Below, piece after piece: positions 21,533 through 48,958 of a stretch of 64,000 nucleotides of DNA. Under the pieces are notes generated by a model. The model worked only from the letters and a program-made list of their open reading frames with translations, was not told where the DNA came from and ran no database searches. The translations under genes and the position numbers were made by a program. The first letter of the stretch is position 1, and the number at the start of each line of letters is the position of its first letter. The DNA is from Candidatus Anstonellales archaeon (lineage in GTDB: Archaea > Micrarchaeota > Micrarchaeia > Anstonellales > J096), in assembly GCA_038890615.1 (NCBI GenBank), contig JAWAFI010000001.1, forward strand, positions 465,536-529,535, given 5' to 3'.

Positions 21533-22002
21533 CTTTCGTCCTCTGCTTCCCTAAACCATTCCCATGAGAATTCATAATCGAAGAGCTCCTCCTTTTTGAA
21601 GAACCTCTTTATTTCCTTCTCTGCTGTTTCCCTACTGTCGCTTGCGTGTATCAGGTTGGTTGAGGTGCTTATGGAAAAATCGCCCCTGATGGTGCCTGGC
21701 TCTGCCTTCCTTCCATTCGTTGCCCCTACTATTTTCCTCACAACCTCAACAGCCTCAGGCCCTTCAACTGCCATTGCCACTATGGGCCTTGAGGTTATGA
21801 ATTTTTCCAATGCCTTGTAGAATGGCTTGTTTAGGTGGTGGGCATAGTGCTCCTTGCTGATCTCAGGGCTTATCCTCATCATCTTGATTCCAACTATTTT
21901 AAGCGCCTTTGCCTCGAACCTGCTTATTATTCTCCCAATAAGCCCCCTCTCAACAGCATCCGGCTTCAGCAATACAAGGGTCCTTTCCATCATCTCGCCC
22001 AT
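21529..22002 (-). CDS. ndk: Nucleoside diphosphate kinase
   Basis: It has ERTLVLLKPDAVERGLIGRIISRFE and NLIHASDS with the active-site His. Confidence 0.95.
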   Translation of the reverse strand: MGEMMERTLVLLKPDAVERGLIGRIISRFEAKALKIVGIKMMRISPEISKEHYAHHLNKPFYKALEKFITSRPIVAMAVEGPEAVEVVRKIVGATNGRKAEPGTIRGDFSISTSTNLIHASDSRETAEKEIKRFFKKEELFDYEFSWEWFREAEDER

Positions 22003-31705: not shown

Positions 31706-32941
31706 ATGCCTTTGCTTATGCAGGCGCTTGCGCCTCCGATTAACGAAGTTACAATTGCAGCGTTCCTGCTATCTTTCTCAATAGTGGTCGCTTACTACCT
31801 TCTAGACAAGGCATGGGAGGCTTTAAGAGGGGGAGCAGGAGCTACCTCTCCATTTACTATACCTGCCAAGAGGGAGATGAATGAATTCTTCGTAACGGTG
31901 CTCATATTCGCATTCTTCAGCATCTTGGTCTTCCTGATGGATACTGTTGTTTCTGCTTTTGTATGCGGCTCAACCACCGGCTGCAATGTGATAGAGATTG
32001 CGCATTTCTATTTGATAAGGCTTCAGGCGCTCCTTGTTAGCCAGTTCACCATAACATACCTTACTGAAACTGTTTTCGGCTTCTTTGGCTACTTAGGAGT
32101 AGGCGGCAAGCCAGACATCCTTTCATTTGTGCCATTTGGCTACAACTTAGCCCCTTTTGCTCCTCTTGGGCTCCCAACAAGCCTCCTGCTTAGGATAATA
32201 GATTTAATAGAAATGGAGCTTGGGGCAACGGTTACTAAGGTTATACTGCTTTACATAATATCCTTTGCAGTTCCTTACCACTTGCTTCCTTTGGGGTTCT
32301 TCATGCGTGCAATACCCTTTACAAGGAAAACAGGGAGCATGGTAATAGCTCTTTGCATCTCTGCGTATTTCGTATACCCTTTCAGCGTAATATACGGAAC
32401 TTCGCTGGTTGTTGACTATATGAATGCAGAATCTCCATCAACGCTTTACCAAATATACGATGCTACTGCAAGCATGATGGGCAGCTTTCTCAATCTTTTC
32501 TCAGGATGGACTTATAATACAGAGTTCTTCACTTCGCTAAACACCAACATAAAAGCATGGGAAGGGGCGCTTCAGGATTATGGAAATGCAATAACTAACC
32601 CTGCTGACCCTGTTGGGAGCAGGGAAGGGGGGCTTGCAACAAAATACCAGCTTGAGTACGAAGACAAGCTTGGCGCTGCAGCAAGCGACCCTGCTTACTC
32701 AATAGGGATAGGGGTTTTAGGCCTTTTCCTTTCAATCCTCGCCAGGCCACTCTTAGTGGTTGAGCTTGTAACAGGGTTCTACAGGATGGTGGTGGTGCTG
32801 GGTATATACACCGCTCTCCAGTTTACAGGTGTGGTTGCGAGCACCTTTTTCGAGATTGTGCTTACAATAACTGCTTTCAGGGCAATCTCAGAGCTTCTCA
32901 GCGGAGAGATGGCGCTTTTTGGGATGGGGAGGCTGACTTGA
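31706..32941 (+). CDS. Paralogous polytopic membrane protein, member 1 of 6 (uncharacterised family)
   Basis: It is multi-TM. It has the shared loop motif LLPLGFFMRAIPFTRKTGSMVIALCISAYFVYPF and the C-terminal tail ...GMGRLT. Its stop is fused to the next start (TGAATG). Confidence 0.6.
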   Translation: MPLLMQALAPPINEVTIAAFLLSFSIVVAYYLLDKAWEALRGGAGATSPFTIPAKREMNEFFVTVLIFAFFSILVFLMDTVVSAFVCGSTTGCNVIEIAHFYLIRLQALLVSQFTITYLTETVFGFFGYLGVGGKPDILSFVPFGYNLAPFAPLGLPTSLLLRIIDLIEMELGATVTKVILLYIISFAVPYHLLPLGFFMRAIPFTRKTGSMVIALCISAYFVYPFSVIYGTSLVVDYMNAESPSTLYQIYDATASMMGSFLNLFSGWTYNTEFFTSLNTNIKAWEGALQDYGNAITNPADPVGSREGGLATKYQLEYEDKLGAAASDPAYSIGIGVLGLFLSILARPLLVVELVTGFYRMVVVLGIYTALQFTGVVASTFFEIVLTITAFRAISELLSGEMALFGMGRLT

Positions 32942-33925
32942 ATGTTCGAGGTTTTCATCGCAGCAGCAGCGCTCCTGATGGTTGCATACATAGCAGTGCT
33001 CTACATGGCTGGCTCCTTTATGCAGAAGCCAGAATGGCACGCAATGGCAAAGGACCAGCTAAGGGAGCTTTTCCTAGCCTGCCTAATAACTATGTCAGCA
33101 GGCGCCATGATATCAATATGCAACTACCTTGGGATAATATGGCTCCAAAGCTACTTCCCTAGCTACTCCATAGTGCAGAATGACCTTGGCAAGACAACCT
33201 CTGCCCAGCTTGAGCAAATAATATTCAAATCCCTCATACCTATGATAGCGCGCATAGGTAGCATAGACATGCTCACTACAACCGCATCAAGCTACTATGC
33301 AGCAGCAGGCCCGGGAAAGTGGAGGTTTGACTTCAAGGTTTTCAATGCAGCAGGGGACAGGTTCCTGCAGATAATAGGTATACTTGAGTTCACTCTTTCA
33401 ATAACGCTTGCAAGCCTTTTCATACAATCAGCAGTTCTTGACATGGCTTACCAGGTTTCAATGGAGATAATGCTCCCTTTGGGTGCTGTGCTGTTGTTCT
33501 TCCCAGTGCTAAGGAAGTCAGGGAAATTTATAGTAGCATTAGCAATAGCGTATGGCTTCTTTGCGCCATTCATATACAGCATGACGCTTGCATCCATAGG
33601 GGATTTTTTCGCAATGAAGTCAGCTTCGAGCCCTGCAATCAATATACCATTCATAGGAGCATATGACTTTTGGGACATCTACTCAACCCCATTTATAAGG
33701 ATAAGTGAGCCCTTCCTGATTTTTCTCCCAACAGGCCATGTTTTTGTGCTTGTATACTCAAACCTGTTCGCAGAAGCCGGAAAAGTGCTTTTCATAACAG
33801 TGCTTTGCCCTGCCTTGGTTTCAATAATAACAGTTTCAACAATAAGGCCGCTTGCTGATTTCATAGAGGCGCAGTCGTTTTTGATAGACACAAGGATGAT
33901 ATCTGGGCCAAGCATAGGTGGTTGA
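32942..33925 (+). CDS. Paralogous polytopic membrane protein, member 2 of 6
   Basis: It has the motif MLPLGAVLLFFPVLRKSGKFIVALAIAYGFFAPF and the tail ...SGPSIGG. It is translationally coupled on both sides. Confidence 0.6.
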   Translation: MFEVFIAAAALLMVAYIAVLYMAGSFMQKPEWHAMAKDQLRELFLACLITMSAGAMISICNYLGIIWLQSYFPSYSIVQNDLGKTTSAQLEQIIFKSLIPMIARIGSIDMLTTTASSYYAAAGPGKWRFDFKVFNAAGDRFLQIIGILEFTLSITLASLFIQSAVLDMAYQVSMEIMLPLGAVLLFFPVLRKSGKFIVALAIAYGFFAPFIYSMTLASIGDFFAMKSASSPAINIPFIGAYDFWDIYSTPFIRISEPFLIFLPTGHVFVLVYSNLFAEAGKVLFITVLCPALVSIITVSTIRPLADFIEAQSFLIDTRMISGPSIGG

Positions 33926-35185
33926 ATGCCAGCGCAGCCGTACATTGAATTTGTTTTGCAGGCATACCAGAACTACCTGCCTTTAGCCCCTCCTTTGATC
34001 CTCCTGTCGCTTGGGCTCATAGCGCTTACCCAAGCAGTAGGGAGGTTCTTGAACATGAACCAGCTCATTGTGTGGGGCAAGCTTGAGCTTTTTGAGCTTT
34101 TCTTCTCTGCTTTTATACTCCTCATATTCCCATTTGCCCTTGGCTCCATGAATGAGATAGCAGCTACGGTAATTACTTCTCTTCCATATGGGCCAGACAT
34201 ATGCCCAAATGCCCAGCAGGCAACAATACCCTGCCACATAGCTTATGCAAAGCAGTTCCTGAATTCAATGTTCATAGAGCTCGACTATGTAATTTTCAGG
34301 CAGCTTGCTTGGTATTCTGTTATAAGCTTGCTCACAAACACAGAGATTTCCTTGGAGGTTGGGATGATATCAAAGCCATGGGCGCCTTTCATGATTTTCC
34401 ATGCCAAAGAGCTAATAATAAGGGACACAGTGCAGCATATGTTTACATTCATGCTGGCTTTAAAGGTCATTGAGAACACCTTTGCTTTCATATCCCTTTT
34501 CTTTTTCCCGCTAATGCTCATAGGTGGGGTTTTGCTCAGGATACTAAAGTATACAAGGAGGCTTGGTGGCCTGCTAATAGCAATAGCGCTGGTGTCGCAT
34601 TACATAACCCCAATACCTTTCATAGTGGGCGGCATGCTTTACAACCAGTACAGGATAGACCAAGGCTTGCCGTACAGTGACTTAAAACCAGTGCTCTACA
34701 AAGCCAAAACAACCTCTTCCACAGGGGTGCCGGCAATACTTGACTTAAAAGACAATGACATTTATGATAGCTGGAAGAAAAGCTACGAGTCGCAATCGCA
34801 GGGCCAGGCGATTGATTACACAACAAGCAATATGCAATACCAGCTTAAAGATAATTTGGTCATAGAGCCATACGTTGACCCACATGATGCTTCTTCAGTG
34901 TCTTCAGGAATAGCATCATTTCTACTTGAAGCAATTTCATTCACAAAATACCTGAGCTTGTACGTTTTCACAGCAGGCTTCGGGCAGGGCGAATCTATAG
35001 TAGACTTCATATATGGGATTGACTTAGTTAAAAAAGGAGGCGCCCTTGATGTAAGCGGTACAGTGCTGGCGTATGTTTTCTTCTTTACATTCATTTCACT
35101 ACTCTCATCAATAGCTGCAGTAAGGAGCCTTTCAGAGACATTTGGCGGGGATTCAGAGATAGCAGGGCTTACGAGGCTGATATGA
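33926..35185 (+). CDS. Paralogous polytopic membrane protein, member 3 of 6
   Basis: It has the motif FFPLMLIGGVLLRILKYTRRLGGLLIAIALVSHYITPIPF and the tail ...GLTRLI. Its stop overlaps the next start (ATGA). Confidence 0.6.
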   Translation: MPAQPYIEFVLQAYQNYLPLAPPLILLSLGLIALTQAVGRFLNMNQLIVWGKLELFELFFSAFILLIFPFALGSMNEIAATVITSLPYGPDICPNAQQATIPCHIAYAKQFLNSMFIELDYVIFRQLAWYSVISLLTNTEISLEVGMISKPWAPFMIFHAKELIIRDTVQHMFTFMLALKVIENTFAFISLFFFPLMLIGGVLLRILKYTRRLGGLLIAIALVSHYITPIPFIVGGMLYNQYRIDQGLPYSDLKPVLYKAKTTSSTGVPAILDLKDNDIYDSWKKSYESQSQGQAIDYTTSNMQYQLKDNLVIEPYVDPHDASSVSSGIASFLLEAISFTKYLSLYVFTAGFGQGESIVDFIYGIDLVKKGGALDVSGTVLAYVFFFTFISLLSSIAAVRSLSETFGGDSEIAGLTRLI

Positions 35186-36369
35186 TGAGGCTAATGCACC
35201 TAATCCTCCTTCTTCTCTTGCCTGCCCTCTCAGCACAGCAGACAAACAACATACAAGAAATAACATCAAGCACCATTGATGAGAAGGCATGGAGCCAAAC
35301 AATAGAGAGCCACTTGCTTCTCCAGATAATAACAAACAACTGCCAGGCAGGGCCGAGCCTTGACATGCACAGCCAATTCTTGACGCTTTCAGCAGCTGTT
35401 TTGATCACTATGCTTTCGCTGCTAATATTCCTATACTTGCTCTCTTACATAACCGATTCTGTTACAATCAGGAGCGTTGTGCAGTACGAGTTTTACTCTG
35501 TGTTCATGACAACCTTCCTCCTTTTCGCCCTTCTTGAAGTCCTTTACCTTACAATCAACCCGGTTTATGAGAAGCTTGGCATACAGGAGAAGGCATTCAG
35601 CTACTCCAACAAGATAGTTGTGAGGCTTTTCACTACGCTTGGCGCTTTCAGCGGCACCTCTTTAGTGTTAAGCGCAATAGAATCCTTAAGGATAAGCATA
35701 AGCTTCAGGATTGTGCCTTTCTCTTTCTCAGCATCTTCATTCGTGAAGCCCATGACTGACTCTGTTGGCTTCATATCCCAGCTAACCAGCTTGGCAGTTA
35801 CAGAATGGCTTGTCAAGGCAGCGCTGCTGTGCCTGATGTTCAATTACTCTTTCCCTCTGCTCATACCCATTGGGCTCTTCCTTAGGGCCATACCAATATT
35901 CAGGGGGGCAGGCAACTCAATAATAGCAGCATCACTTGGGTTCTTCTTCATATTCCCGCTTCTTCTTGCAGTAAACGATGACATAGATGCCAAGATGTCG
36001 CTTATACTGCGCGAGAGGGAGACAATGGACAGGGCAGTGGCAGTAGTAAAGGATGTCGCAGGGGATTCTGCATTCTCAGTAAACAACGCAACAGGGGAGG
36101 AGCTTTCTGGCTGGCTGGAGAAACTCTACAACCTGCTTTTCAGGGCTATATTTTTCCCTTCGCAGCAAACTCCTATCGACCAAGGGGGCATATGGCTCTG
36201 GGAAAAGGTGTTCTACCCTCTTTTCATACTGCGCTTTGTGTATTACTTCTTTGTTCTCAGCGCCATATTCCCGTTTATAAACATTTCAGTGCTAATAGCT
36301 GCAATAAAGGAGATAGGCCAGTGGCTTGATGCTGATGTAAAGCTTGATGTTTTCATGAGGTTGATATAG
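35182..36369 (+). CDS. Paralogous polytopic membrane protein, member 4 of 6 (has cleavable-looking signal peptide)
   Basis: It has the N-terminus MMRLMHLILLLLLPALSAQQ, the motif LLIPIGLFLRAIPIFRGAGNSIIAASLGFFFIFPLL, and the tail ...VFMRLI. Confidence 0.6.
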   Translation: MMRLMHLILLLLLPALSAQQTNNIQEITSSTIDEKAWSQTIESHLLLQIITNNCQAGPSLDMHSQFLTLSAAVLITMLSLLIFLYLLSYITDSVTIRSVVQYEFYSVFMTTFLLFALLEVLYLTINPVYEKLGIQEKAFSYSNKIVVRLFTTLGAFSGTSLVLSAIESLRISISFRIVPFSFSASSFVKPMTDSVGFISQLTSLAVTEWLVKAALLCLMFNYSFPLLIPIGLFLRAIPIFRGAGNSIIAASLGFFFIFPLLLAVNDDIDAKMSLILRERETMDRAVAVVKDVAGDSAFSVNNATGEELSGWLEKLYNLLFRAIFFPSQQTPIDQGGIWLWEKVFYPLFILRFVYYFFVLSAIFPFINISVLIAAIKEIGQWLDADVKLDVFMRLI

Positions 36370-37593
36370 ATGGCATCGCTTGCAGAATTACAAGGCACTT
36401 TGCTTGCCCAGCTCATGCCTGCCTATGCAGCCCTCTACAATTACGAGCCGCTTGCTCAGTCGCAGGTATGCGGCGACCCTGCTGGCTTTGTGAATTCCCT
36501 TATGCCCCCTGTTGGGGAGGTCCTGCTCCTTTCAGTGGCTATAATTGTTTTCCTATACCTGCTTTCAAGGATCCTGGCAAACCCAATGCTGGAATCATAC
36601 GTGAAGCTTGAGCTCCAAGAGATTCTCATAACCTGCCTTATATTCATATTCTTTGGGCTGATGATACCTATCCCATGCGTTCCTGCATCTTTCCTTAGCG
36701 TGCCCCCGGCTTATTCATCGAACACAATGATTCTTGATGGAGCTGTCTACCTTTCAGAGGTAGGGTCAAACTACCTGCTGCTCGGCTACTTCTTCTCAAC
36801 GCTTATGTATTACATAATATCCTTTTACTCTGTAATAATAAACGCTGCGCCCCTTGTTGGGACAGTAGTTGCGCCATTGCAGGGGCTTTCAGCAGTAATA
36901 TCCCCTGTGTTCTCAACAGTTGCCACTACCTTAGGCACTGGCGTAGTAATAAACTTCGCCTACCTGCTATTCTATGATTTCATGACCTACTCTTTCTTGA
37001 AGGCAATGCTACCTATAGGGCTCTTGCTGAGGTGCTTCACGATCACAAAGAAGGCAGGGAGCGCAATAATAGCGCTCTGCCTTTCATTCTATGTGCTGTT
37101 CCCATTCCTGCTTACTTTGGAGCATTCCATTGTAATGAACTCAGGCTATGGAAATTCATTAAACATGATACTTAGGAACGTCTGGTCAACTACTAAATAT
37201 GTAAGTGATGCAATAATACCCGGCCCATCTAAGCTTGAGCCAGGAGAGGAGCTTAAAGAATGGATAGAAAAAGGCGCCAATCCAATAATCTATGGCCTTG
37301 GGACCGCTCCTTTCCTTGCGACATTTGTTTTCCAGTTTGTTGCTGCCCTTGGCTTTATGCCAATAACAAAGCTGATAGCCCCTGCAGTGCTTGGCCAATG
37401 GATGGCATCAATAGTTGCAATACCTGCGCACATGATTGCTGCGGAGATGCTTATAACCACTTCAGTGTACGTTTTCATCAACTCAGTGATATTCCCTGCA
37501 CTAAACACGCTCGTGCTCGTTGGCGCTGCGGCATCCTTTGCCCAGCTGCTAGGAGTTCAGCTTGATGTTTCAAACCTTACGAGGCTGATATGA
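36370..37593 (+). CDS. Paralogous polytopic membrane protein, member 5 of 6
   Basis: It has the motif MLPIGLLLRCFTITKKAGSAIIALCLSFYVLFPFL and the tail ...SNLTRLI. It overlaps the next start by ATGA. Confidence 0.6.
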   Translation: MASLAELQGTLLAQLMPAYAALYNYEPLAQSQVCGDPAGFVNSLMPPVGEVLLLSVAIIVFLYLLSRILANPMLESYVKLELQEILITCLIFIFFGLMIPIPCVPASFLSVPPAYSSNTMILDGAVYLSEVGSNYLLLGYFFSTLMYYIISFYSVIINAAPLVGTVVAPLQGLSAVISPVFSTVATTLGTGVVINFAYLLFYDFMTYSFLKAMLPIGLLLRCFTITKKAGSAIIALCLSFYVLFPFLLTLEHSIVMNSGYGNSLNMILRNVWSTTKYVSDAIIPGPSKLEPGEELKEWIEKGANPIIYGLGTAPFLATFVFQFVAALGFMPITKLIAPAVLGQWMASIVAIPAHMIAAEMLITTSVYVFINSVIFPALNTLVLVGAAASFAQLLGVQLDVSNLTRLI

Positions 37594-38573
37594 TGCTGAT
37601 GATCTGGCTCAACATTTCGATTGCAATAATAGCGACGATTTTCATAGCCTCCCTCTTAGTATATATGATAGGGAAGGGGTTTATGATCCCCCAGCTGGAG
37701 TCCATTGCAAAGAAGGAAATGATATATGTGGTCTCCACTGTGCTCCTGCTCATATTCATAGAGTTGCTAGTGGTAGAGCTTGAAGGAATGCTAGTGGCAA
37801 TAATGGAGCCATACATAACACAGCTTCTTGCTGTATACGGCCAGCCAGCCCCTTCAGGCCAGCTTACGCTCATAGACATGAGCATAATGTTTATGGGAGG
37901 CCCATACAACTGCCTTGTGACTAAAATACTTCCGCCAGTGGCAGCGCTTGCATCCGACTTAAGCACAATATTCAAGGCAAAGGTTGAGGTTCCAATGCCC
38001 AACCCAAGCGGCTTTGGCGGGGTGGGGAACATCCTTGACCTCCTAAATTACTTCATAGGTGCATCTGTTGTTTTTGTTCTTGCTTATTTCTTCCTTACAA
38101 ACCTATTGCTGCTTTTCAAGCACCTTTCACTTCCATTGTTCATCCCGCTTGGCATAATATTAAGGGCATTTTCACCTACAAGGGGAGCAGGTGCATACAT
38201 ACTTGCCTTTTCAATAGTAGGTTACTTTGTAATGCCTCTTACGTACTCCATAATTTCCCTTATATTGGGGATTTCTTTTGGCGCAGCAGGGATTTGCCAG
38301 CCAATAGACATACCACCCTACCTCCTTATGACGCTGAATTCAGGCAGCCCGCAGACAGAAGCAGAGCAGATGGCCATAAGGACTCTCCAGTCATCAGGGG
38401 TGATGAGCAATGTGGCAGATTCAATAGATAAGATAATAATGGGGCTCTTCATGTACCTCTGCTCAATACCTTTCATAACCCTTACCGTAGGTCTTACAAC
38501 AGTCCTTTTCCTTTCTGCTGTGTTTGGGATAAACCTGCCTGAGGTAGGAAGGGGGCTAGTGAAGCTTATTTGA
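37590..38573 (+). CDS. Paralogous polytopic membrane protein, member 6 of 6
   Basis: It has the motif FIPLGIILRAFSPTRGAGAYILAFSIVGYFVMPL and the tail ...RGLVKLI. It ends 59 nt before the tuf start. Confidence 0.6.
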   Translation: MMLMIWLNISIAIIATIFIASLLVYMIGKGFMIPQLESIAKKEMIYVVSTVLLLIFIELLVVELEGMLVAIMEPYITQLLAVYGQPAPSGQLTLIDMSIMFMGGPYNCLVTKILPPVAALASDLSTIFKAKVEVPMPNPSGFGGVGNILDLLNYFIGASVVFVLAYFFLTNLLLLFKHLSLPLFIPLGIILRAFSPTRGAGAYILAFSIVGYFVMPLTYSIISLILGISFGAAGICQPIDIPPYLLMTLNSGSPQTEAEQMAIRTLQSSGVMSNVADSIDKIIMGLFMYLCSIPFITLTVGLTTVLFLSAVFGINLPEVGRGLVKLI

Positions 38574-41426: not shown

Positions 41427-42026
41427 ATGAGGTACAGCGCAACGCTCTTAGGGCTAATAGCATTCTGCTTCCTGCTCCAGCTCTTGATTCCAGGGCTTAC
41501 AGAGGCGCTTTATTTTGAGCCATCCAAGGTCTTCTCAGAACCGTGGAGATGGATAAGCAGCATGTTCCTCCATGGGGGGTTCATGCACATATTCTTAAAT
41601 GGTTTTGCTCTGCTCATGTTCGGGCCCATAGTAGAAAGGAAGCTTTCAGCCAGCCAGTTCTTGGCTCTTTATTTTGCCTCAGGCATAGCTGGCTCCCTCT
41701 TTTATTACCTAAGCATAGTTGCAGGGATAATCCCTCCTATCCCTGCGTTGGGGGCAAGCGGAGCAATATATGGCATTCTCGGCGCAGCAGCAGTCCTTTT
41801 TCCAGATATGGTAGTGTATACATACTTTGTCCCATTAAGGATGAGATATGCAGCAATCCTATGGGCTTTCTTAGCCCTAATAGGCTCTTTTGATGCAGGC
41901 TCTGGAATTGCCAGCGCAGCCCATCTTGGGGGCCTTGTAGTAGGCTACCTTATGGCTAAGCACTACAAAAGTAAGGAGGATGACCTCATTTATTTTTACC
42001 AAGAAATTCCGCCAGAAGTGCTTTAG
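41427..42026 (+). CDS. Rhomboid-family intramembrane serine protease
   Basis: It has the catalytic GASGAIYG serine motif, the AHLGG histidine, 6 TM helices, and the rhomboid FLHGGFMH motif. Confidence 0.8.
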   Translation: MRYSATLLGLIAFCFLLQLLIPGLTEALYFEPSKVFSEPWRWISSMFLHGGFMHIFLNGFALLMFGPIVERKLSASQFLALYFASGIAGSLFYYLSIVAGIIPPIPALGASGAIYGILGAAAVLFPDMVVYTYFVPLRMRYAAILWAFLALIGSFDAGSGIASAAHLGGLVVGYLMAKHYKSKEDDLIYFYQEIPPEVL

Positions 42027-42477
42027 CTTTTTTGCTCATCCTCTTTTTTGCGTATTCCTCAAATTCTCTCTCAACCCTGTATTCGTGTGCTTGGAGCACC
42101 ATGTCCAAAAGGTTCATGTCCCTTACAAACTTGGCAAGCTTTGTCTTGCCTTCCCTATATTCTTTCATCAGCTTAACCCCATCCTTGCCAATCAGGGGCT
42201 CAATCTCCTTTTCTGCCTTCCTTTCAAGCGAGTCCTTCTCCTTGCTTTTTGCGTCAAAAGGTGTTATGTCGCCTGTGATTGCCTCTGCCAAGTCATGCAG
42301 AAGGGCCATTTCCACTGCCTTCTCTCTGTTTGCCTTAAACTCCTTTGCAAATGCATAGCAGAGGACTGCAGTGCTGAAAGAGTGGTCTGCAATGCTCTCA
42401 ACCTCTGCCTTTATGTGCCTGGTCCACCCTCTTCTCTCTGTTTTCTTAAGGGCTAAGATTATTTTCCAGATGCTCAT
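41986..42477 (-). CDS. YfbR-like HD-domain 5'-(deoxy)nucleotidase (start moved to MSIWKII, overlapping the rbcL stop by ATGA)
   Basis: RRGWTRHIKAEVESIADHSFSTAVLCYAFA...ALLHDLAEAITGDITPFD matches the H...HD...D metal site of the YfbR/HDDC2 family. Confidence 0.75.
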   Translation of the reverse strand: MSIWKIILALKKTERRGWTRHIKAEVESIADHSFSTAVLCYAFAKEFKANREKAVEMALLHDLAEAITGDITPFDAKSKEKDSLERKAEKEIEPLIGKDGVKLMKEYREGKTKLAKFVRDMNLLDMVLQAHEYRVEREFEEYAKKRMSKKAKALLAEFLGKNK

Positions 42478-43739
42478 ATTTTCTTGTGCCAAAGGTAGTA
42501 CACCTGCTTCCCTCCCCATTTTTCGAGTGCAACTGCAAGCTCCTTGCATTCCTTTGCCTTTTCCTTAAGTGTTATGCCTTCTGCCACTGCATCTACTGCT
42601 GCCCTCATTGCTTTAGCCCCTGCTTCTGTGCCTTGCGGATGGCCATGCACCCCTCCCCCTCCTTGGAAAACAAAATCAGTTGAGTTGAAGGCATTCACAA
42701 CATCATAAACCTTGGTTGGATATAGGCCTCCTGAGGCAACAGGGAAAACTGGCTTTATGCCATTCTTCCTTTCAACCAAAGAGGAGTATTGTTTCCTTAC
42801 TTCTTCTTTATTAGCATGCATCTTTCCTGCACCATGGTCTATATGGAGCTGGTCAACCCCCATTAGCCTGAATATCTTCGCCCAAACATGCATCTTTACC
42901 ATATTGCCCCCTCCTTCTGTGAATACACCATGCATAGCCCTGTGAGCATGGATTGGCAGTATGTTTTGGTCCCTTACCATCTGCACTGCAGAGAAGCCGC
43001 AGGTGAAGAGGTCAAGCATAATCATGTTGCCTCCATGCTCCTTAACGAAATCTGCCCTTTTCAGCATCACATCTGCATTTGCTGTTATGTTAGGGGAGTA
43101 AAGCTTTTTCTCCCCTGTTTCTTCCTCTGCCCTGTCAAGCGCCTCCAATGTCTTCACAACCCTTTCCTCAAACTTGCAGAACTTCTGGTCTGTAAGGTTC
43201 TCATCATCCTTTACGAAGTCAATGCCTCCTCTCCATGCCATCTCTGCCACTTCTGCGAATTTCTTTGCGCTAAGCCCAAGCTTTGGCTTTATTATAGTGC
43301 CAACATGGGGCCTCCTGCTCTTCGTTGTCCCAAGATACCTTCTAATCCCTTCCATCCCTTCCTTTGGGCCAGGGAACTTTTTTTCGTACTTTTGGGGCAA
43401 ATAGATGTCATCAAGCACAAGCCAATCTGCCTCTTTAACCCCAAAGACATTGCCAGAAATAGATGATAGCAGCTGAGGGATGCTTCTTTTCTCAAAGAGC
43501 CCAATAGGATATGCTATAGCCATGCTCACTACGCCCTTTTCCTTCCTCAGCTTGAAGACCTTTGCTCCAAACTTTTCTACAATCTGCCTTGAAGATGTCC
43601 ATACCTCTGTCCATGTCCCCACTGAGCTTTCTGCTGCTATAATCTCTGCTATCTTTTCAGCAGGCTGGGAGCTCTTAGCCCTGAAGAAAACCACCAGATG
43701 CTCATCATCCGGCTCAAAACCAAGCTTTATGTAGCCCAT
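42474..43739 (-). CDS. rbcL: Ribulose-1,5-bisphosphate carboxylase large subunit, form III (archaeal type)
   Basis: It has GGIDFVKDDENL (carbamylated Lys in KDDE), IHAHRAMHG and GGGVHGHP loop 6. It is 421 aa, and no small subunit is present. Confidence 0.95.
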   Translation of the reverse strand: MGYIKLGFEPDDEHLVVFFRAKSSQPAEKIAEIIAAESSVGTWTEVWTSSRQIVEKFGAKVFKLRKEKGVVSMAIAYPIGLFEKRSIPQLLSSISGNVFGVKEADWLVLDDIYLPQKYEKKFPGPKEGMEGIRRYLGTTKSRRPHVGTIIKPKLGLSAKKFAEVAEMAWRGGIDFVKDDENLTDQKFCKFEERVVKTLEALDRAEEETGEKKLYSPNITANADVMLKRADFVKEHGGNMIMLDLFTCGFSAVQMVRDQNILPIHAHRAMHGVFTEGGGNMVKMHVWAKIFRLMGVDQLHIDHGAGKMHANKEEVRKQYSSLVERKNGIKPVFPVASGGLYPTKVYDVVNAFNSTDFVFQGGGGVHGHPQGTEAGAKAMRAAVDAVAEGITLKEKAKECKELAVALEKWGGKQVYYLWHKKI

Positions 43740-43789
43740 AATTACCCCTATTGCTTTTGAACTTCAATTATTAAAAAGATTATTAAGCA

Positions 43790-44998
43790 CTAGCCAGTTA
43801 TTAAAGGCTTAAGGAGCCTTAATATCTGGGGCCTTCCAGCCACAACCTTGGCAACTACTGGCGCATAGTCCCCTTTCATAACCAAGTCAAGCTCAGGGGC
43901 TCCAATCTCTCCTATTATGTGGTTAAGGTCATCATCGCTTATGTGCTCAAGCACCTTTCTCAGCCTTAGCCTCTTCTCATACTTCTTACCTGCTGTTTCT
44001 TTCCACGCCCTCTCATATTCTCTGAGGAGGTTGGCAGAGAAGTCCTTCTTTTCAAATGCTTTTGCAGCAGTAGAGGCAGCAAGAACCCCTGCCTCCATTG
44101 CCATTGCTATCCCCCCGCCATGTATTGGGTCCACCTGCCTTGCAGCAGTGCCTATCACCATAAAGTTGTCCTTTACAAATTCATCAAGCAAACCCCCTAC
44201 GCTTATCACACCTCCAAAATCTTCCAATGTTGAAGCATCCCTTAGCTGGGGATGGTTTTCTATGAACCTGTCAAGCAAGGGCTTTGGAGCAGCCCCAGGA
44301 ATGCCACCTAGCTTTTTCCACTTGTCAAGCATAGCCCCTATGCCTATGCCAACGTTTGCCTTCCTGCTTGCCTTAGGGAATATCCAAACATAGCCTCTCG
44401 GTGCTATTTCATTGCCAAAGTATAACTCTATTAAATTCTCGTGGTCATATGGCTTCATCTCGTATTCATAGCAGGTGTCAACATCATATAGCCTTGCCAC
44501 TGCCTTAAACCCTGCTTTCCTTGCTAGCCATGCCTCCATTCCTTCAGCAGAAACAATGAGCTTGGCCCTTATCTCATCTTCTTTTTCATTGTGCCTTATC
44601 TTTACCCCTGCAATCTTTCCATTTTCTTTTATCAATTCATAAGCCTCTGTATACATCCTTACCTTTGCGCCAGCATCTATTGCAAGCTCTGCTAGCCACT
44701 TGTCAAAGAAGCGCCTCTCCAAAACCCATCCTTTGGTGTCTTTTCCTTTCCATACAATTGATTTCCCATTAGGTGCGACAACTTTCGCCCCTACTATTTC
44801 AGTGGAGTAGACCTGCTTTGGCAAATCAAGCCCTTCTTTTATCACCTCCCTTTCGCCCAGCCCTTCACCGCACCTTACAGGTATGCCGACATCTTTCCTC
44901 TTGTCAACCACTATTACCCCAAGCCCGCTCTTTGCAGCAACCCTTGCAAAAGTGGAGCCAGCAGGCCCTGCCCCTATTACTACTATGTCAGCCTCCAT
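43790..44998 (-). CDS. ggr: Digeranylgeranylglycerophospholipid (geranylgeranyl) reductase (start moved to MEADIVVIGAG)
   Basis: It has the FAD-binding VVIGAGPAGS, a GGR-family C-terminal domain, and is about 400 aa. Confidence 0.9.
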   Translation of the reverse strand: MEADIVVIGAGPAGSTFARVAAKSGLGVIVVDKRKDVGIPVRCGEGLGEREVIKEGLDLPKQVYSTEIVGAKVVAPNGKSIVWKGKDTKGWVLERRFFDKWLAELAIDAGAKVRMYTEAYELIKENGKIAGVKIRHNEKEDEIRAKLIVSAEGMEAWLARKAGFKAVARLYDVDTCYEYEMKPYDHENLIELYFGNEIAPRGYVWIFPKASRKANVGIGIGAMLDKWKKLGGIPGAAPKPLLDRFIENHPQLRDASTLEDFGGVISVGGLLDEFVKDNFMVIGTAARQVDPIHGGGIAMAMEAGVLAASTAAKAFEKKDFSANLLREYERAWKETAGKKYEKRLRLRKVLEHISDDDLNHIIGEIGAPELDLVMKGDYAPVVAKVVAGRPQILRLLKPLITG

Positions 44999-45000
44999 AA

Positions 45001-45219
45001 TCACACCTGCAAGTCCTTTTCCCCTAGCTCCTTGATGCTCTTTACCCCTTTGTGCATTGTTATTACATTGGCAGGGCAGGCCTTTACGCAAAGCCCGCAG
45101 TCAGTGCATTTTTCAGGGATTATTTTCATCCTGTTGCCTGAATAGACTATTGCCTGCGTTGGGCATACTGCTGAGCATCCAACACACACTATGCAAGCAT
45201 CATGCTTAATAGTTATCAT
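45001..45219 (-). CDS. fdx: 2x[4Fe-4S] ferredoxin, co-transcribed upstream of ggr
   Basis: It has CIVCVGCSAVCP and CTDCGLCVKACP cluster motifs. It is 72 aa, and its stop lies 2 nt before the ggr start. Confidence 0.85.
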   Translation of the reverse strand: MITIKHDACIVCVGCSAVCPTQAIVYSGNRMKIIPEKCTDCGLCVKACPANVITMHKGVKSIKELGEKDLQV

Positions 45220-45267: not shown

Positions 45268-47577
45268 ATGGCAGAAAAGGGCCTAACACTTAAGCAGGTT
45301 GAGCAGAGCAGGGAAAGGCACGGAAGGAATATAATTGAGGAGAGGCAGAAGACGCTGCTCCACTTCATTGCAGACCAGTTCAGGAATACTGTGCTCTATC
45401 TGCTCATTGCAGCAGTTGCCATCTCGTTCTTTATAGGCGAGGAGCTTGAGGCAATAGGGATAGGTGCTGCAATAGTTCTTACCATTGCCTTTGGAACTTA
45501 CCTTGAGTACACAGCAGACAGGAGCGTTAGGGAGCTAAAAAAGTACATGGCAGAAGAGGTTGTTGTGATTAGGGATGGCAAGAGGCAGCTCATAAAGGCA
45601 GAGGAGCTGGTAGTTGGGGATGCAGTGCTTATGGAGGAAGGGCAGAGGGTAGCAGCTGACATGAAGCTCATTAGCGGCTTTGTTGAGGCTGATGAATCAC
45701 TGCTTACCGGGGAATCAAAGCCAGTTGAGAAGAAGAAAGGCGACCTTCTTTTTTCTGGGAGCAGGATAGTAGAGGGCTCAGGCACAGCTCTTGTAACTGC
45801 TGTAGGCCCTAAGAGCTCTGCAGGAAGGATTGCAGGTAGCTTAGGCAGCCTTGAGAAAGAGAAGACAAACATAGAGGCAATGCTAGAGGATTTGGGCAGG
45901 AAGATAAGCTATTTTGGCATAGCAGTGATGCTTTTTACAATATTTATATCACTGCTTGCTGGGAAGCCAATTGAGCAGGCTTTTTTATTCTCTATAGCTC
46001 TTGCAGTCGCGGTAGTTCCAGAAGGGCTCGTTACAGTTCTAACAATTGTGCTTGCCTTAGGCGTTAGGGAGATGGCAAACCACATGGCCCTTGTGAAAAA
46101 GATGAGGGCAGTTGAGGAGATAGGGCACATCACAGCGCTTGTTACTGACAAGACAGGTACGCTCACCTATGGAAAGATGAAGCTTGCTGCATTCATAGCG
46201 AATGGGAAAAGGTATCCCCCTGCTGAAATCCCGCAGGAATGGAAAGAAGCAATTGCTGCATGCACACAGGTAGAGGAGACAGACAAGGGCCTTGTTGGCA
46301 ATGAGACAGACAGGGCAATAGTAGAAGGACTGGGAATAAGCCTTAAGGGGATAAAGAAAAGCGTTGTCCTATTGCGACCTTTCAGCAGCACAACCCGCTC
46401 AATGTCAGTCAAGTATAAAGGCAGGGTAATCACAAAAGGGGCCCCAGAGTCAGTTGGGATAAATGCCTCTGATTATGAATCATTAGGCAGGGTGCTTGGG
46501 ATAAAATACGGCAGAAAGGAAGGCATAATAATACTTGAGGATCCAATAAGGGAGCAGGCCCCAGAAGCAGTGCGCAAGCTCCAGCAGGGAGGGGTAAAGG
46601 TAATAGTAGTGACAGGTGACGCATTAGGGACCGCCTCTGCTGTTGCAGACAAGGTAGGCATTTCGGGTAAGGCCGTGCTTTGGGAGGATATAAGAAGGAT
46701 GGATGATGAAAAGCTTGCTGAGCGCTTGGGCTCAATAGGCGTTATTGCAAGGTGCCCCCCAGAAGGGAAGCTAAGGGTAGTTGAGGCACTGCTTAGGGCA
46801 GGTGAGAGGGTGGCTGTATCTGGAGATGGAGTTAATGATGCGCTTGCTCTTAAGAGGGCAAATGTTTCGCTTGTGATGGGAAGCACAGGGACTGCAGTGA
46901 GCAAAGAGATAGCGGACATAGTCCTCCTTGATGACAACATGAGCACCATAGAGGGAGCAGTGAATTATGGCAAGCTCGTTTACAGGAATGTGCTTAATTT
47001 CATAAGGTTCCAACTAACCACCAATGTTGCGCTTGTGGCTTTCATACTGCTTTCATTCTTCTTTTCCCAGAATTACCCCCTTACTGCTCTCCAGTTGCTT
47101 TTCATAAACATAATAGTTGACGGCCCTCCTGCACTTGCGCTTGGGTTTGAAAGGTCAGAGGCAATAACAGAGAAGCCTAAGCTTGACAGGAAGCTAGCAA
47201 GGAGCATAATCCTAGCCGGCCTCTTCATGGCCATCCTTTCTTTCATATGGCACGCCATCGCCCCTTATGAAAAGAAGATTACCTACGCATTCTTGAGCAT
47301 TGCCTCTCTCCAGCTTTTCCATGCATTCAATTGCAGGTCAATGAAGAAAAGCTTTTATGAGGGCTCCAACAATGTGCTGCTAACCACATTTGTTGTTATA
47401 ATGGTTGTTTTAGTGCTTACCTTGTTCGATCCTATTGCTCCTTTCTTCTCCACAGTTCAGCTTTCTCTGCAGGAGATTGCGCTTATATTCATTTCCTCAA
47501 CTGCAGTGCTCGGCTATGGCGAGATAGAGAAGCTTTTCCTTAACAAAAATCAAGGAAGCAGCGAAGCCAGCGGGTAG
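45268..47577 (+). CDS. P-type cation-transporting ATPase (type II-like)
   Basis: It has DKTGTLT phosphorylation, TGES, GDGVNDA and PEGL motifs. The listed ATG at 45247 lies inside the TATA-like ttttaaatgg, so the ATG at 45268 (MAEKGLTLKQ) is the likely leaderless start. Confidence 0.9.
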   Translation: MAEKGLTLKQVEQSRERHGRNIIEERQKTLLHFIADQFRNTVLYLLIAAVAISFFIGEELEAIGIGAAIVLTIAFGTYLEYTADRSVRELKKYMAEEVVVIRDGKRQLIKAEELVVGDAVLMEEGQRVAADMKLISGFVEADESLLTGESKPVEKKKGDLLFSGSRIVEGSGTALVTAVGPKSSAGRIAGSLGSLEKEKTNIEAMLEDLGRKISYFGIAVMLFTIFISLLAGKPIEQAFLFSIALAVAVVPEGLVTVLTIVLALGVREMANHMALVKKMRAVEEIGHITALVTDKTGTLTYGKMKLAAFIANGKRYPPAEIPQEWKEAIAACTQVEETDKGLVGNETDRAIVEGLGISLKGIKKSVVLLRPFSSTTRSMSVKYKGRVITKGAPESVGINASDYESLGRVLGIKYGRKEGIIILEDPIREQAPEAVRKLQQGGVKVIVVTGDALGTASAVADKVGISGKAVLWEDIRRMDDEKLAERLGSIGVIARCPPEGKLRVVEALLRAGERVAVSGDGVNDALALKRANVSLVMGSTGTAVSKEIADIVLLDDNMSTIEGAVNYGKLVYRNVLNFIRFQLTTNVALVAFILLSFFFSQNYPLTALQLLFINIIVDGPPALALGFERSEAITEKPKLDRKLARSIILAGLFMAILSFIWHAIAPYEKKITYAFLSIASLQLFHAFNCRSMKKSFYEGSNNVLLTTFVVIMVVLVLTLFDPIAPFFSTVQLSLQEIALIFISSTAVLGYGEIEKLFLNKNQGSSEASG

Positions 47578-48641
47578 CCTTCTAATTTCCACCGTTTTTC
47601 CTTGAGCCATTCCTTACCGAGCCTTACTATCAGCGCGTGGAATTCCTTGTAGAGCTTAGCATTGCGCGGCAGGGCAGATACGAAGAGCCATGCGTAGTCA
47701 TCATAGGTTTTTCTCTTTATGCCATGCACCTCAAGCATCCTCCTTGTATAAGCATCAACAACAAAGTACGGCTTTCCATAAGCATACAAGAGGATGGAGT
47801 CAGCAGTCTCAGGCCCAACCCCTTCCAGGGCAAGGAGCTCTTCCCTTCCTGCGCTTCTCCTATGCGCTAGGAAAAACCTTGCTATCTTTTTTATCCGCTT
47901 TGCTTTCTGCCTGTAGTAGCCAGAGCTTCTTATTGCTTCCTCTACTGCTTTTAGCTTAGCATTTGCAAGCTTTTCAGGCCTCAGCAGGTCAACTCTTTTT
48001 AGCTCTGCTATCGCCTTTTCTACATTGGACCATGCAGTATTCTGTGTTAGAATTGCCCCAACCATCACCTCAAACCTTGTTTTTGCAGGCCACCATCCCT
48101 GAGGGCCATAATAGGAAAAAAGAACCTTGTAAGCATTCCTAACAAAGGCCTTTTCTCGCACGCTTTCTTTCAGCTCTTTGCTCCAATCAACCTTTTCGCC
48201 CCTGCCTGCCTTGAACATTTTAATCACTTTTTTTGCTGCTTCCTTTGCGCTTATTCCTGTAGTGTCAACCTCAATCGCTTTTGCATAATTCTGCTTTGCT
48301 TTAAGAAAGCAGTAGTCAAGCATCTCTGCTTCAACGTTGATCTCAACCTTTTTAACGCTGTAGCCCCTTTCCCTAAGCCTTCTCCTGAGTTCATCAGGAT
48401 GGCACCTCAATACAACAGCTGTTTTTTCCCCAAAGTTGGCTTCGCACAAAACATGCCCTTCCTTGACACCTTCAAGCCTCTTCATTGATTTCCTAAGGGC
48501 TTCTACGCTAACCTCCCCTTTTTTGATAAGCCCTGCTTTTTTTGCAACATCTGCGCTGCTTATGTAACTTTGCCCAAGGGCCTTTGCAACCTCTTTTGTC
48601 ACTGAGGTTTTACCTGTCCCAACTGAGCCGGTTATTATCAT
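47550..48641 (-). CDS. Fusion protein: N-terminal Fap7/adenylate-kinase-like P-loop NTPase plus C-terminal endonuclease-III-like HhH-GPD domain (start moved to MIITGSVGTGKTS)
   Basis: The N-terminus has the Walker A GSVGTGKTS and a short AK-like core. The C-terminus has LLALEGVGPETADSILLYAYGKPYFVVDAYTRRML, the HhH-GPD hallmark. Confidence 0.6.
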   Translation of the reverse strand: MIITGSVGTGKTSVTKEVAKALGQSYISSADVAKKAGLIKKGEVSVEALRKSMKRLEGVKEGHVLCEANFGEKTAVVLRCHPDELRRRLRERGYSVKKVEINVEAEMLDYCFLKAKQNYAKAIEVDTTGISAKEAAKKVIKMFKAGRGEKVDWSKELKESVREKAFVRNAYKVLFSYYGPQGWWPAKTRFEVMVGAILTQNTAWSNVEKAIAELKRVDLLRPEKLANAKLKAVEEAIRSSGYYRQKAKRIKKIARFFLAHRRSAGREELLALEGVGPETADSILLYAYGKPYFVVDAYTRRMLEVHGIKRKTYDDYAWLFVSALPRNAKLYKEFHALIVRLGKEWLKEKRWKLEGYPLASLLP

Positions 48642-48958
48642 ATGAACCTTGTCCCGCAAGAAGGGCATTGGGTTAGGTAGGCCTCGCTCCTGTAGCCGCA
48701 GATAGGGCATACATAAATGCTCCTTGTCTTGTACCTTTCTGCTGCGAAATCATACTTGCACTTCTTGCACCTTTCTGCATCAAGCTCATTCAGCTCCTTG
48801 CAGTTTGGGCACCTCAATTTGAACATAGTGCTTATATGCGTTCCGCACTTTGGGCACCTTTTCATGTCCAATGTTATTGCTGTGCCGCAATCAGGGCATT
48901 TGTAGGTCTTGCCCTTTTTTGGCAGAATAAAATCAAATAGACCTTCTAAAAGCCCCAT
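48638..48958 (-). CDS. Multi-zinc-ribbon protein (six CxxC pairs), 106 aa
   Basis: It has CPDCG, CPKCG, CPNC, CKKC, CPICG and CPSCG pairs. Its stop lies 3 nt before the downstream kinase/HhH start. Confidence 0.5.
   Translation of the reverse strand: MGLLEGLFDFILPKKGKTYKCPDCGTAITLDMKRCPKCGTHISTMFKLRCPNCKELNELDAERCKKCKYDFAAERYKTRSIYVCPICGYRSEAYLTQCPSCGTRFI

Follow-up and report, generated by a model that had tools for sequence, protein, structure and literature searches.

A form III RuBisCO large-subunit gene (rbcL) and a gene for an HD_3-family phosphohydrolase (hereafter HD) overlap in a 64,000-nt stretch of the genome of a Candidatus Anstonellales archaeon, one of the Micrarchaeota (hereafter the window), where both genes are under purifying selection. 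The genome also encodes the canonical partners of RuBisCO in the AMP pathway, and the linkage between rbcL and HD is not conserved among other form III loci. The pairing is best seen as an arrangement particular to this lineage, occurring in a highly compact genome, and not as a conserved salvage module. The explanation that we regard as probable is that an ordinary III-b-type RuBisCO works in the known AMP pathway with HD as an incidental or loosely related neighbor, and we infer that no functional dependency links HD to RuBisCO. The relevant features, in window coordinates, are as follows.

Positions -1723..-137 (5928-7514 of contig L085), minus strand: deoA, AMP phosphorylase, 528 aa, lying 137 nt beyond the left window edge.
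Positions 1..756, minus strand: e2b2-family ribose-1,5-bisphosphate isomerase gene, 5' 756 nt (298 aa in full), its 3' end cut by the window edge.
Positions 41427..42026, plus strand: rhomboid protease gene (Pfam Rhomboid, 2.4e-31), convergent with HD.
Positions 41986..42477, minus strand: HD, an HD_3 (HDDC2/YGK1/YfbR-family) metal-dependent phosphohydrolase, 163 aa from ATG 42477, identified by Pfam, PDB and fold comparisons.
Positions 42474..42477, minus strand: ATGA stop/start overlap of rbcL and HD, read from the sequence and kept in the relative L002.
Positions 42474..43739, minus strand: rbcL, form III (III-b-type) RuBisCO large subunit, 421 aa, identified by Pfam, NCBIfam and PDB matches.
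Positions 43740..43789, minus strand: AT-rich spacer of 50 nt between a geranylgeranyl reductase gene and rbcL, read from the sequence.

The first-pass annotation had recognized rbcL as a form III gene from its KDDE motif and the lack of a small subunit, and profile, structure and alignment comparisons bear this out. The product matches PF02788 (RuBisCO_large_N; 5.6e-32) and PF00016 (RuBisCO_large; 1.8e-78) in Pfam, and its closest solved structure is the form III enzyme of Pyrococcus horikoshii (2CWX; 7e-102). The top NCBIfam family is rubisco_III (TIGR03326), at 456.9 bits and below the equivalog cutoff of 497.45, while the PRK04208 subfamily model is passed (446 bits, cutoff 438) and the form II and form IV models score far below form III, at 260 and 236 bits, respectively. 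Across 42 aligned homologues, no variation is seen in the FVKDDENL motif or at the remaining catalytic positions, specifically E37, T42, W43, N97, K151, K153, K177, D179, E180, H266, R267, H299, K306, S336, G338 and G361-363; H270, in the HRAMH motif, is likewise present. We take the spinach-numbered counterparts of the catalytic residues to be E60, T65, W66, N123, K175, K177, K201, D203 and E204, together with H294, R295, H298, H327, K334, S379, G381, G403 and G404. The enzyme is predicted to act as a carboxylase on RuBP.

Pfam annotation of the regions around rbcL, covering 10 kb on its upstream side and the ~8.2 kb that remain downstream before the contig ends, showed no small-subunit or PRK gene. 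Alignment to the P. horikoshii form III enzyme and 41 homologues reveals neither the 29-aa insertion that marks II/III RuBisCO nor the 11-aa insertion that marks III-like RuBisCO (PMC6389311). By its sequence, the protein belongs to form III, and within it to III-b as defined by Jaffe et al. 2019, a type already known from Micrarchaeota (PMC6389311). It differs from known AMP-pathway RuBisCOs in sitting on a long branch, no other lineage being more than 60% identical to it (the near-identical L002 aside), and in scoring too low for the NCBIfam form III equivalog. Loop 6 and the stretch following the HRAMH motif hold its divergent residues. Comparison with L002 gives dN/dS = 0.06 for rbcL, a sign of purifying selection.

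AMP phosphorylase converts an NMP and Pi to a base and ribose-1,5-bisphosphate, and the gene for this enzyme lies just beyond the window. The first-pass annotation was literally right that the window holds no deoA, yet the gene begins 137 nt outside, where it was read from contig L085, whose sequence matches the window exactly for 11,335 nt. Gene absence from a window can be such an edge effect. The deoA product scores 620 bits against TIGR03327 (AMP_phos), above the cutoff of 535, and the deoA start is overlapped, as ATGA, by the stop of the adjacent e2b2 gene, so that the genome has a route to ribose-1,5-bisphosphate. The e2b2 candidate noticed earlier at the left edge is itself real, its best NCBIfam family being the R15P isomerase TIGR00511 at 259 bits, short of the 314-bit cutoff. 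The e2b2 and deoA products are 45-49% and 44-48% identical, respectively, to those encoded beside rbcL in other archaea.

The AMP, or pentose-bisphosphate, pathway of DeoA, E2b2 and form III RuBisCO is known from Thermococcus kodakarensis (Sato 2007; Aono 2012) and from CPR and DPANN genomes (Wrighton 2016, PMC5113843; Jaffe 2019, PMC6389311). As in that pathway, all three enzymes are encoded here, the RuBisCO with every catalytic residue and without a small subunit. The arrangement differs, as rbcL lies 41.7 kb from the deoA/e2b2 pair, whereas these genes lie within 10 kb of rbcL in roughly 40-50% of other loci. This comparison rests on a survey of 160 other form III RuBisCO loci, 80 GTDB-representative and 80 metagenome (~2.0 Mb); a single RuBisCO protein used as query found no match among the metagenome contigs, and an alignment query was used for the metagenome loci. 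Within 10 kb of rbcL, deoA and e2b2 each occurred in 42 of the 80 GTDB-representative loci, and in 32 and 31, respectively, of the 80 metagenome loci (74 and 73 of 160 overall). In five Micrarchaeota loci, rbcL stood alone among unrelated neighbors, and a published survey likewise reports that RuBisCO neighbors are not conserved in DPANN (PMC8407392).

These genes bear directly on the role that the first-pass annotation had suggested for HD, namely that of a 5'-nucleotidase turning NMPs into nucleosides, from which a nucleoside phosphorylase and a ribose-1-phosphate kinase would make R15P for RuBisCO, with the coupling of the two genes pacing both enzymes. With deoA present, NMPs can be converted to ribose-1,5-bisphosphate directly, in one step that keeps the 5'-phosphate, and a nucleotidase feeder is therefore unnecessary; a 5'-nucleotidase would use the substrate of AMP phosphorylase and so be a competitor and not a supplier. 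Moreover, the ORFs of the 64-kb window (checked in part by Pfam scans and for the rest by eye) and the 7.6-kb left flank yielded neither a recognizable nucleoside phosphorylase nor a recognizable ribose-1-phosphate kinase. What speaks for a feeder is the overlapping, co-directional layout of rbcL and HD, kept in L002, and the existence of HD_3 genes and enzymes elsewhere that are taken up below. On balance, a feeder role for HD is quite unlikely, and of the salvage module proposed at first, the pathway genes stand and the membership of HD is not supported.

The overlap itself is clear in the sequence. The end of rbcL reads ...AAA ATA TGA and HD begins ATG AGC..., with the HD ATG at 42477..42475 and the rbcL TGA at 42476..42474. 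The HD reading frame stays open upstream of this ATG, and the start of the gene is accordingly uncertain: NCBI calls TTG 42492 (168 aa), the Logan assembly gene call is ATG 42522 (177 aa), and a start at 42549 (187 aa) is ruled out by a stop codon in L002. All candidate starts fall within the 3' end of rbcL, and HD translation would begin inside the last 4-49 nt of that gene. The translational coupling claimed at first stands as an ATGA overlap. However, 18 of the 36 co-directional neighbor pairs in the window overlap or abut, eight of them by exactly 4 nt, and they include such unrelated pairs as PEP synthase/diphthamide synthase, MCM/signal-peptide peptidase and TYW1/phosphoesterase/Nop5. 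With half of the co-directional pairs overlapping or abutting, the 4-nt overlap of rbcL and HD is not above chance here, and such an overlap has little functional weight in genomes this compact.

Read by eye, the spacer upstream of rbcL contains a GGGG element resembling a Shine-Dalgarno sequence as well as TATA-like TTAATAAT / TTTTTAATAA, and it is a putative promoter from which rbcL and HD are very probably co-transcribed. At the other end, the unit is bounded by the rhomboid gene, whose 3' end overlaps that of HD by 41 nt; in L002, a convergent partial gene takes the place of the rhomboid gene downstream of HD.

Because the HD frame is open for ~24 codons upstream of the ATG, we asked whether a programmed frameshift might fuse RuBisCO to HD. 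The idea was discarded on three grounds: no slippery heptamer is kept between the window and L002; all three substitutions in the stretch are synonymous for rbcL and two of the three are non-synonymous in the HD frame; and a stop codon stands further upstream in the HD frame of L002. Likewise, an RNA element at the locus was rejected for want of any Rfam match, and a recently transferred island was rejected on composition, as the GC content of 0.46-0.47 equals the window mean (0.457) and reveals no anomaly.

The earlier placement of HD in a YfbR-like nucleotidase lineage, and not in a non-nucleotidase HD family, proved sound, with HDDC2 as the nearer relative. The protein matches Pfam HD_3 at 1e-32 (113.8 bits against a gathering cutoff of 22.5) and the YfbR-like family at 3.7e-9. 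Its PDB matches are led by HDDC2 (1.7e-19) and include PH0347, PF0395 and YGK1, with YfbR reaching only E 3e-3. The AF2 model (pLDDT 91.5) aligns in Foldseek with HDDC2 at TM 0.85 and with YfbR at TM 0.77. Identity in the alignment is 29% to HDDC2 and 22% to YfbR, and HD reaches 23.2 bits with the NCBIfam YfbR equivalog NF003009, whose cutoff is 122. The closest archaeal solved HD_3 structures, PH0347 (2CQZ; E 6e-17) and PF0395 (1XX7; E 1.5e-14), align at TM ~0.72 and are without assigned function. From its sequence and predicted fold, HD is placed within the HDDC2/YGK1/YfbR nucleotidase lineage, which it resembles in fold, size (~160-200 aa) and substrate and catalytic residues. Purifying selection is again evident (dN/dS = 0.08 against L002). 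A role in a defence system was also considered and rejected, no PADLOC match being found.

Residues R15, W18, H32, H61, D62, E65 and D70 of HD align with R18, W19, H33, H68, D69, E72 and D77 of YfbR, and R15, W18, E65 and D70 are invariant or nearly so in the alignment of relatives. The metal ligands of YfbR are H33, H68, D69 and D137 (PMC8177086). In HD, the mononuclear H...HD...D site is incomplete: H32, H61 and D62 are kept, while the fourth ligand is N123 in place of the canonical Asp (YfbR D137, HDDC2 D143, YGK1 D159), and L002 has Asn as well. The Asn ligand lies in an FVRDMNLLDM motif common to 13 of 38 HD relatives, and a search for characterized proteins among these 13 variants found none. 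The residue change, the low YfbR equivalog score and the sequence identities given above set HD apart from the characterized family members.

Hydrolysis of dNMPs is the activity of YfbR and YGK1, ribonucleotides being kept out of YfbR by Trp19 (PMC8177086). Judging from the shared residues, HD is most probably a nucleoside 5'-monophosphatase that prefers deoxyribonucleotides. Deoxyribonucleotides are preferred or required by these characterized relatives, and the sugar of such nucleotides cannot feed RuBisCO; together with the retained Trp, the specificity of YfbR and YGK1 for dNMPs speaks against ribonucleotide substrates for HD and hence against a feeder role. The family does hold an exception, as the HDDC2 homologue of T. 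brucei is a broad-specificity 5'-nucleotidase that hydrolyses ribonucleotides (PMC5098729), an observation that favors a feeder and goes against the preferred explanation.

The pairing of rbcL with HD_3 seen in the window is absent from the 160 other form III loci, which also counts against a feeder. Among these, a clear HD_3 gene was found only in L028, at a distance of 9.5 kb, and a weak one in L061; a six-frame recheck did not change this. The sole relative with the same rbcL-HD arrangement is L002, which is 92% identical, and between L002 and the window the arrangement has persisted across a dS of ~1 or more. The closest relatives of HD, other members of the Asn sub-clade included, occur in unrelated contexts without RuBisCO.

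Besides the near-identical L002, the nearest lineage is L003, whose RuBisCO is 60% identical and sister to that of the window in a neighbor-joining tree built without reference sequences. In L003, an HD_3 gene and a NUDIX gene (MutT/NudG-like) are paired as an operon within 350 nt of rbcL, which is a second observation that runs against the preferred explanation and in favor of a feeder. Its HD_3 protein, at 29% identity to HD, is non-orthologous and is encoded in a convergent unit on the strand opposite to rbcL, which weakens its value to that reading. HD_3 genes have a background density of roughly one per Mb of flanking sequence, so that the L003 adjacency is unlikely to have arisen by chance (~0.01 over the three relatives examined, a post hoc figure), and some real, lineage-specific association of rbcL with HD_3 may therefore exist.

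Such an association would fit a reading in which HD is a dNMP-specific partner, serving a deoxy branch of scavenging or shielding AMP phosphorylase from dNMPs, and forms a lineage-specific catabolism unit with RuBisCO. The L003 NUDIX enzyme ((d)NTP to (d)NMP) and HD ((d)NMP to nucleoside) would then belong to the same branch. The conserved residues matching those of dNMP-specific YfbR (R18, W19, D77 and E72; PMC8177086) agree with this, as does the NUDIX and HD_3 operon abutting rbcL in L003, and HD_3 adjoins rbcL in two of the four lineages of a small RuBisCO sub-clade against ~1 in 160 elsewhere, a post hoc statistic on a tiny sample. Against it, the HD proteins of the window and L003 are not orthologous, that of L003 sits in a separate, convergent transcription unit, and no deoxyribose-handling genes were seen nearby. 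Enrichment of NUDIX genes beside rbcL was examined as a pattern in its own right and rejected, with 8 of ~164 loci being near expectation. A dedicated dNMP partner is, on this evidence, unlikely.

RuBisCO-ancillary phosphatases are familiar from the HAD family, where CbbY and CbbZ are examples. By analogy, HD might remove xylulose-1,5-bisphosphate, 2-phosphoglycolate or excess RuBP, with the Asn ligand reflecting a change of substrate. The overlap of HD with rbcL, the shift from H...HD...D to H...HD...N in a conserved sub-clade and the divergence of the RuBisCO around loop 6 could all be read in this way. Yet HD keeps all of the YfbR nucleotide-binding residues, other members of the Asn sub-clade lie in contexts without RuBisCO, and a literature search gave no precedent for an HD_3 sugar-bisphosphate phosphatase, leaving a sugar-phosphate substrate very improbable. 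A broader conjecture, which we consider a long shot, is that HD_3 enzymes, the H...HD...N variant among them, have been recruited more than once as dedicated partners by a small and rapidly evolving group of DPANN form III RuBisCOs, the sub-clade that includes those of the window, L002 and L003. The recruited enzymes may remove dNMPs or inhibitory sugar phosphates that poison the route through AMP phosphorylase, R15P isomerase and RuBisCO, and would be HD-fold analogues of the HAD-type ancillary phosphatases.

Under the preferred explanation, in which HD is an incidental or loosely related neighbor, AMP phosphorylase would release ribose-1,5-bisphosphate from NMPs, the e2b2 product would isomerize it to RuBP, and RuBisCO would combine RuBP with CO2 to give two molecules of 3-phosphoglycerate, without HD being needed to feed it. 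Any shared theme would be loose at most, with RNA-derived NMPs passing to RuBisCO and DNA-derived dNMPs to the HD enzyme.

The item worth a bench test is the conserved replacement of Asp by Asn in the HD metal site, a change absent from all characterized family members. Had HD belonged to a true module, the archaeal pentose-bisphosphate pathway would have gained a new point of entry in host-dependent DPANN archaea. Instead, the evidence points to a complete, already described AMP pathway in which rbcL merely stands apart from its partners.

The window's form III RuBisCO gene, rbcL, is directly followed by an HD_3 phosphohydrolase gene, and the first-pass annotation had read the pair as a nucleoside/AMP salvage module in which an HD 5'-nucleotidase feeds RuBisCO. 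The features that bear on this reading include:

42474..43739, minus: rbcL, form III RuBisCO, 421 aa (ORF and domain matches)
42800..42930, minus: divergent RuBisCO stretch, residues about 271-309, at positions where conservation among 41 homologues is at least 85-100%
43740..43789: 50-nt AT-rich spacer upstream of rbcL, with TATA-like elements and a GGGG ribosome-binding motif
42109..42111, minus: Asn123 of the HD protein, at the fourth canonical metal ligand position (alignment)
-1723..-137 in window coordinates (5928-7514 of L085, an overlapping contig from the same sample), minus: deoA, AMP phosphorylase, 528 aa (TIGR03327, 620 bits vs. a cutoff of 535)

The RuBisCO had been described as a form III enzyme with a KDDE carbamylation site and no small subunit. 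Both large-subunit domains are present (Pfam), and form III is the top NCBIfam model at 456.9 bits, slightly below its equivalog cutoff of 497; the large-subunit subfamily cutoff is exceeded, and the models for forms II and IV trail far behind. Among solved structures, form III RuBisCO of Pyrococcus horikoshii comes nearest and that of T. kodakarensis second, with the M. burtonii II/III enzyme far more distant. The KDDE site and all other positions for catalysis and substrate binding are invariant columns in an alignment with 41 homologues, and no small-subunit or PRK gene was found among the Pfam-annotated genes flanking rbcL. These domains, models and residues, together with an identical protein deposited as a MAG protein from a 558-kb contig of Candidatus Anstonellales (Micrarchaeota, DPANN), thus confirm the description. 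Published work already describes form III-b RuBisCO from Micrarchaeota as well as its link to deoA and e2b2 (PMC6389311; PMC5113843), and the window enzyme is a long-branch member. Its divergent residues (for example, A271G, A272V, R275E, H279N, G280M, G301D and E308H) lie after the HRAMH motif, where GVFTEGGGNMVKM replaces the usual AAFxRNxKHGISM, and in loop 6, where GKMHAN replaces GKMEGx, with every catalytic residue intact. The close relative L002, whose RuBisCO is 92% identical, has the same post-HRAMH residues and a near-identical loop 6 (GKMHAD), and dN/dS for RuBisCO is 0.06.

The reported ATGA stop/start overlap can be read directly in the sequence: the end of rbcL (...AAA ATA TGA) overlaps the ATG AGC of the HD ORF, which ends at 41986 on the minus strand. 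The HD reading frame stays open 5' of ATG 42477, and annotations offer alternative starts at TTG 42492 (NCBI) and ATG 42522 (another gene caller). The longest start (187 aa) was ruled out by an intervening stop codon in L002. Upstream of the TTG, the window and L002 differ by three substitutions, each of them silent in rbcL, whereas two would change the amino acid if the HD frame were translated there. This pattern and the L002 stop codon place the true start at 42477 or 42492, both of which fall within the 3' end of rbcL. A single transcript starting from the AT-rich spacer would carry both genes. On it, translation of the HD protein probably begins either at the ATGA, through reinitiation, or 15 nt further upstream at the TTG, which is preceded by a GGTG motif at -12..-9. 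The same spacer divides rbcL from the genes directly upstream (43790..45219, minus), a 72-aa 2x[4Fe-4S] ferredoxin gene and, 2 nt later, a geranylgeranyl reductase-family gene; the pair looks like one for archaeal lipid saturation.

Gene packing in the window is extreme. Half of the co-directional neighbour pairs (18/36) overlap or abut, by exactly 4 nt in eight cases, and these include unrelated genes such as PEP synthase/diphthamide synthase, MCM/signal-peptide peptidase, and TYW1/metallophosphoesterase/Nop5. The ATGA junction is therefore typical of this genome, and it tells little about shared function. Elsewhere, 31706..38573 (plus) holds six tightly packed, mostly abutting genes for multi-pass membrane proteins of 327-419 aa, several of which end alike (...LTRLI, ...MRLI, ...GRLT, ...VKLI); the four with Pfam records have no Pfam match, the remaining two were read by eye, and the genes may constitute a paralogous array. 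At 47550..48710 (minus), one ORF encodes an AAA_18/adenylate-kinase-like P-loop domain and, fused with it, a DNA glycosylase domain of the HhH-GPD type (Pfam, NCBIfam).

Looking up the neighbouring ITPase gene led to L085, which shares 11,335 nt with the window at full identity and reaches 7.6 kb further left. The earlier statement that the window lacks deoA is correct and reflects an edge effect: the AMP phosphorylase gene lies just past the left edge, beginning 137 nt outside. The proposed e2b2 homologue at 1..756 proved sound, being complete on L085 (298 aa) with R15P isomerase TIGR00511 as its top family (259 bits vs. a cutoff of 314). Both proteins share 44-49% full-length identity with the deoA and e2b2 products flanking rbcL in other archaea. 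Given a deoA that passes its cutoff, the best family of e2b2 and these identities, the genome therefore encodes the complete published AMP pathway of RuBisCO, R15P isomerase and AMP phosphorylase. The e2b2 stop overlaps the deoA start as ATGA, so the canonical genes form a coupled pair of their own, 41.7 kb from rbcL. Nucleotide-pool genes are scattered through the window, and none adjoins rbcL:

805..1335: ITPase, beside e2b2
17427..18513: inorganic pyrophosphatase overlapping dTMP kinase
21020..22002: dUTPase/dCTP-deaminase-family gene overlapping nucleoside-diphosphate kinase

Conservation of the rbcL-HD pairing was surveyed in 160 form III loci, 80 of them taken from species-representative genomes and the other 80 metagenomic, with no more than 10 kb of flank apiece (about 2.0 Mb). 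Unbiased clustering of flanking ORFs in the representative genomes gave AMP phosphorylase and e2b2 (each 42/80) as by far the commonest neighbours, and the metagenome loci had them in 32/80 and 31/80, respectively. Searching these loci with an HD-family HMM, first over called ORFs and then over all six-frame segments, turned up just a single clear HD_3 gene, in L028 at 9.5 kb from rbcL, plus a weak match in L061. In five Micrarchaeota loci rbcL lies among unrelated genes, in line with a published account of RuBisCO neighbourhoods in DPANN as unconserved (PMC8407392). Likewise, RuBisCO was absent around the closest HD relatives with usable contigs, where neighbours are unrelated and two contexts are clearly bacterial.

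The pairing was found in two relatives only, L002, which keeps the ATGA overlap, and L003, whose RuBisCO (60% identical) is a sister lineage in an NJ tree. In L003, HD_3 and MutT/NudG-like NUDIX genes form a convergent two-gene unit adjoining rbcL. The window HD protein is 29% identical to that of L003 vs. 40-49% to bacterial and eukaryotic homologues, so the two are not orthologues. A genuine link specific to this lineage may exist: HD_3 genes occur in the flanks at about one per Mb, which puts the chance of one within 350 nt of the L003 RuBisCO at ~0.01, a post hoc figure from one locus that is weakened by non-orthology and opposite orientation. Downstream of rbcL, the next two lineages of the RuBisCO sub-clade carry other genes instead, one AlaX-like and one with a metallo-beta-lactamase fold. 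NUDIX genes lie directly beside form III rbcL in three DPANN-like loci (L003 2819-3758, L084 11238-11732 and L149 2287-2730), of which L003 pairs NUDIX with HD_3; within 10 kb of rbcL they occur in 8 of about 164 loci, near expectation.

Against Pfam, the HD protein scores well for HD_3 (1e-32) and weakly for YfbR-like. Its nearest solved relatives are human HDDC2 (1.7e-19), archaeal PH0347 and PF0395 (both uncharacterised) and yeast YGK1, with E. coli YfbR only a marginal sequence match; a confident AlphaFold model (pLDDT 91.5) gives TM 0.85 on HDDC2 and 0.77 on YfbR. In a residue alignment including YfbR from E. coli K-12, R15, W18, H32, H61, D62, E65 and D70 correspond to YfbR R18, W19, H33, H68, D69, E72 and D77. 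YfbR binds a single metal ion through H33, H68, D69 and D137, its W19 is a steric block to ribonucleotides, its R18 and D77 make contact with the deoxyribose, and mutation of any of these residues inactivates it (PMC8177086). dNMPs are substrates of YfbR and YGK1 (PMC8177086), and a T. brucei HDDC2 homologue has a broader range, yet is most active on deoxypyrimidine nucleotides (PMC5098729). One defining family feature is lacking: where YfbR has D137 (D143 in HDDC2, which is mutated in PDB 4L1J), the window HD protein has Asn123, and that of L002 likewise has Asn. Asn occupies this fourth ligand position in none of the characterised members. The HD protein is a new member of the known HDDC2/YfbR/YGK1 family, with a variant metal ligand. 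The motif holding Asn123, FVRDMNLLDM, is common to 13 of 38 relatives, and the Asn variants form a conserved sub-clade. This sub-clade, together with purifying selection on the HD gene (dN/dS 0.08 vs. L002), shows that the protein is functional. Among HD proteins it falls in the nucleoside-monophosphatase lineage, and its gene is both conserved and under selection.

Because AMP phosphorylase turns NMPs straight into ribose-1,5-bisphosphate, RuBisCO needs no 5'-nucleotidase to feed it, and such an enzyme would draw on the substrate that AMP phosphorylase uses. The presence of AMP phosphorylase, the unconserved pairing, the commonplace overlaps and the dNMP-type residues all speak against the HD nucleotidase as a RuBisCO feeder, and support for the salvage-module reading goes no further than a loose thematic link between genes that, like their overlap, are real. 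No report tying HD_3 nucleotidases to the pentose-bisphosphate pathway emerged from literature searches, and a dedicated RuBisCO-pathway partnership within the window's sub-clade is quite improbable. Since its Trp is conserved and characterised relatives are specific for dNMPs, the HD protein most likely dephosphorylates deoxyribonucleotides, a predicted activity that would serve pool control or the catabolism of DNA-derived nucleotides.
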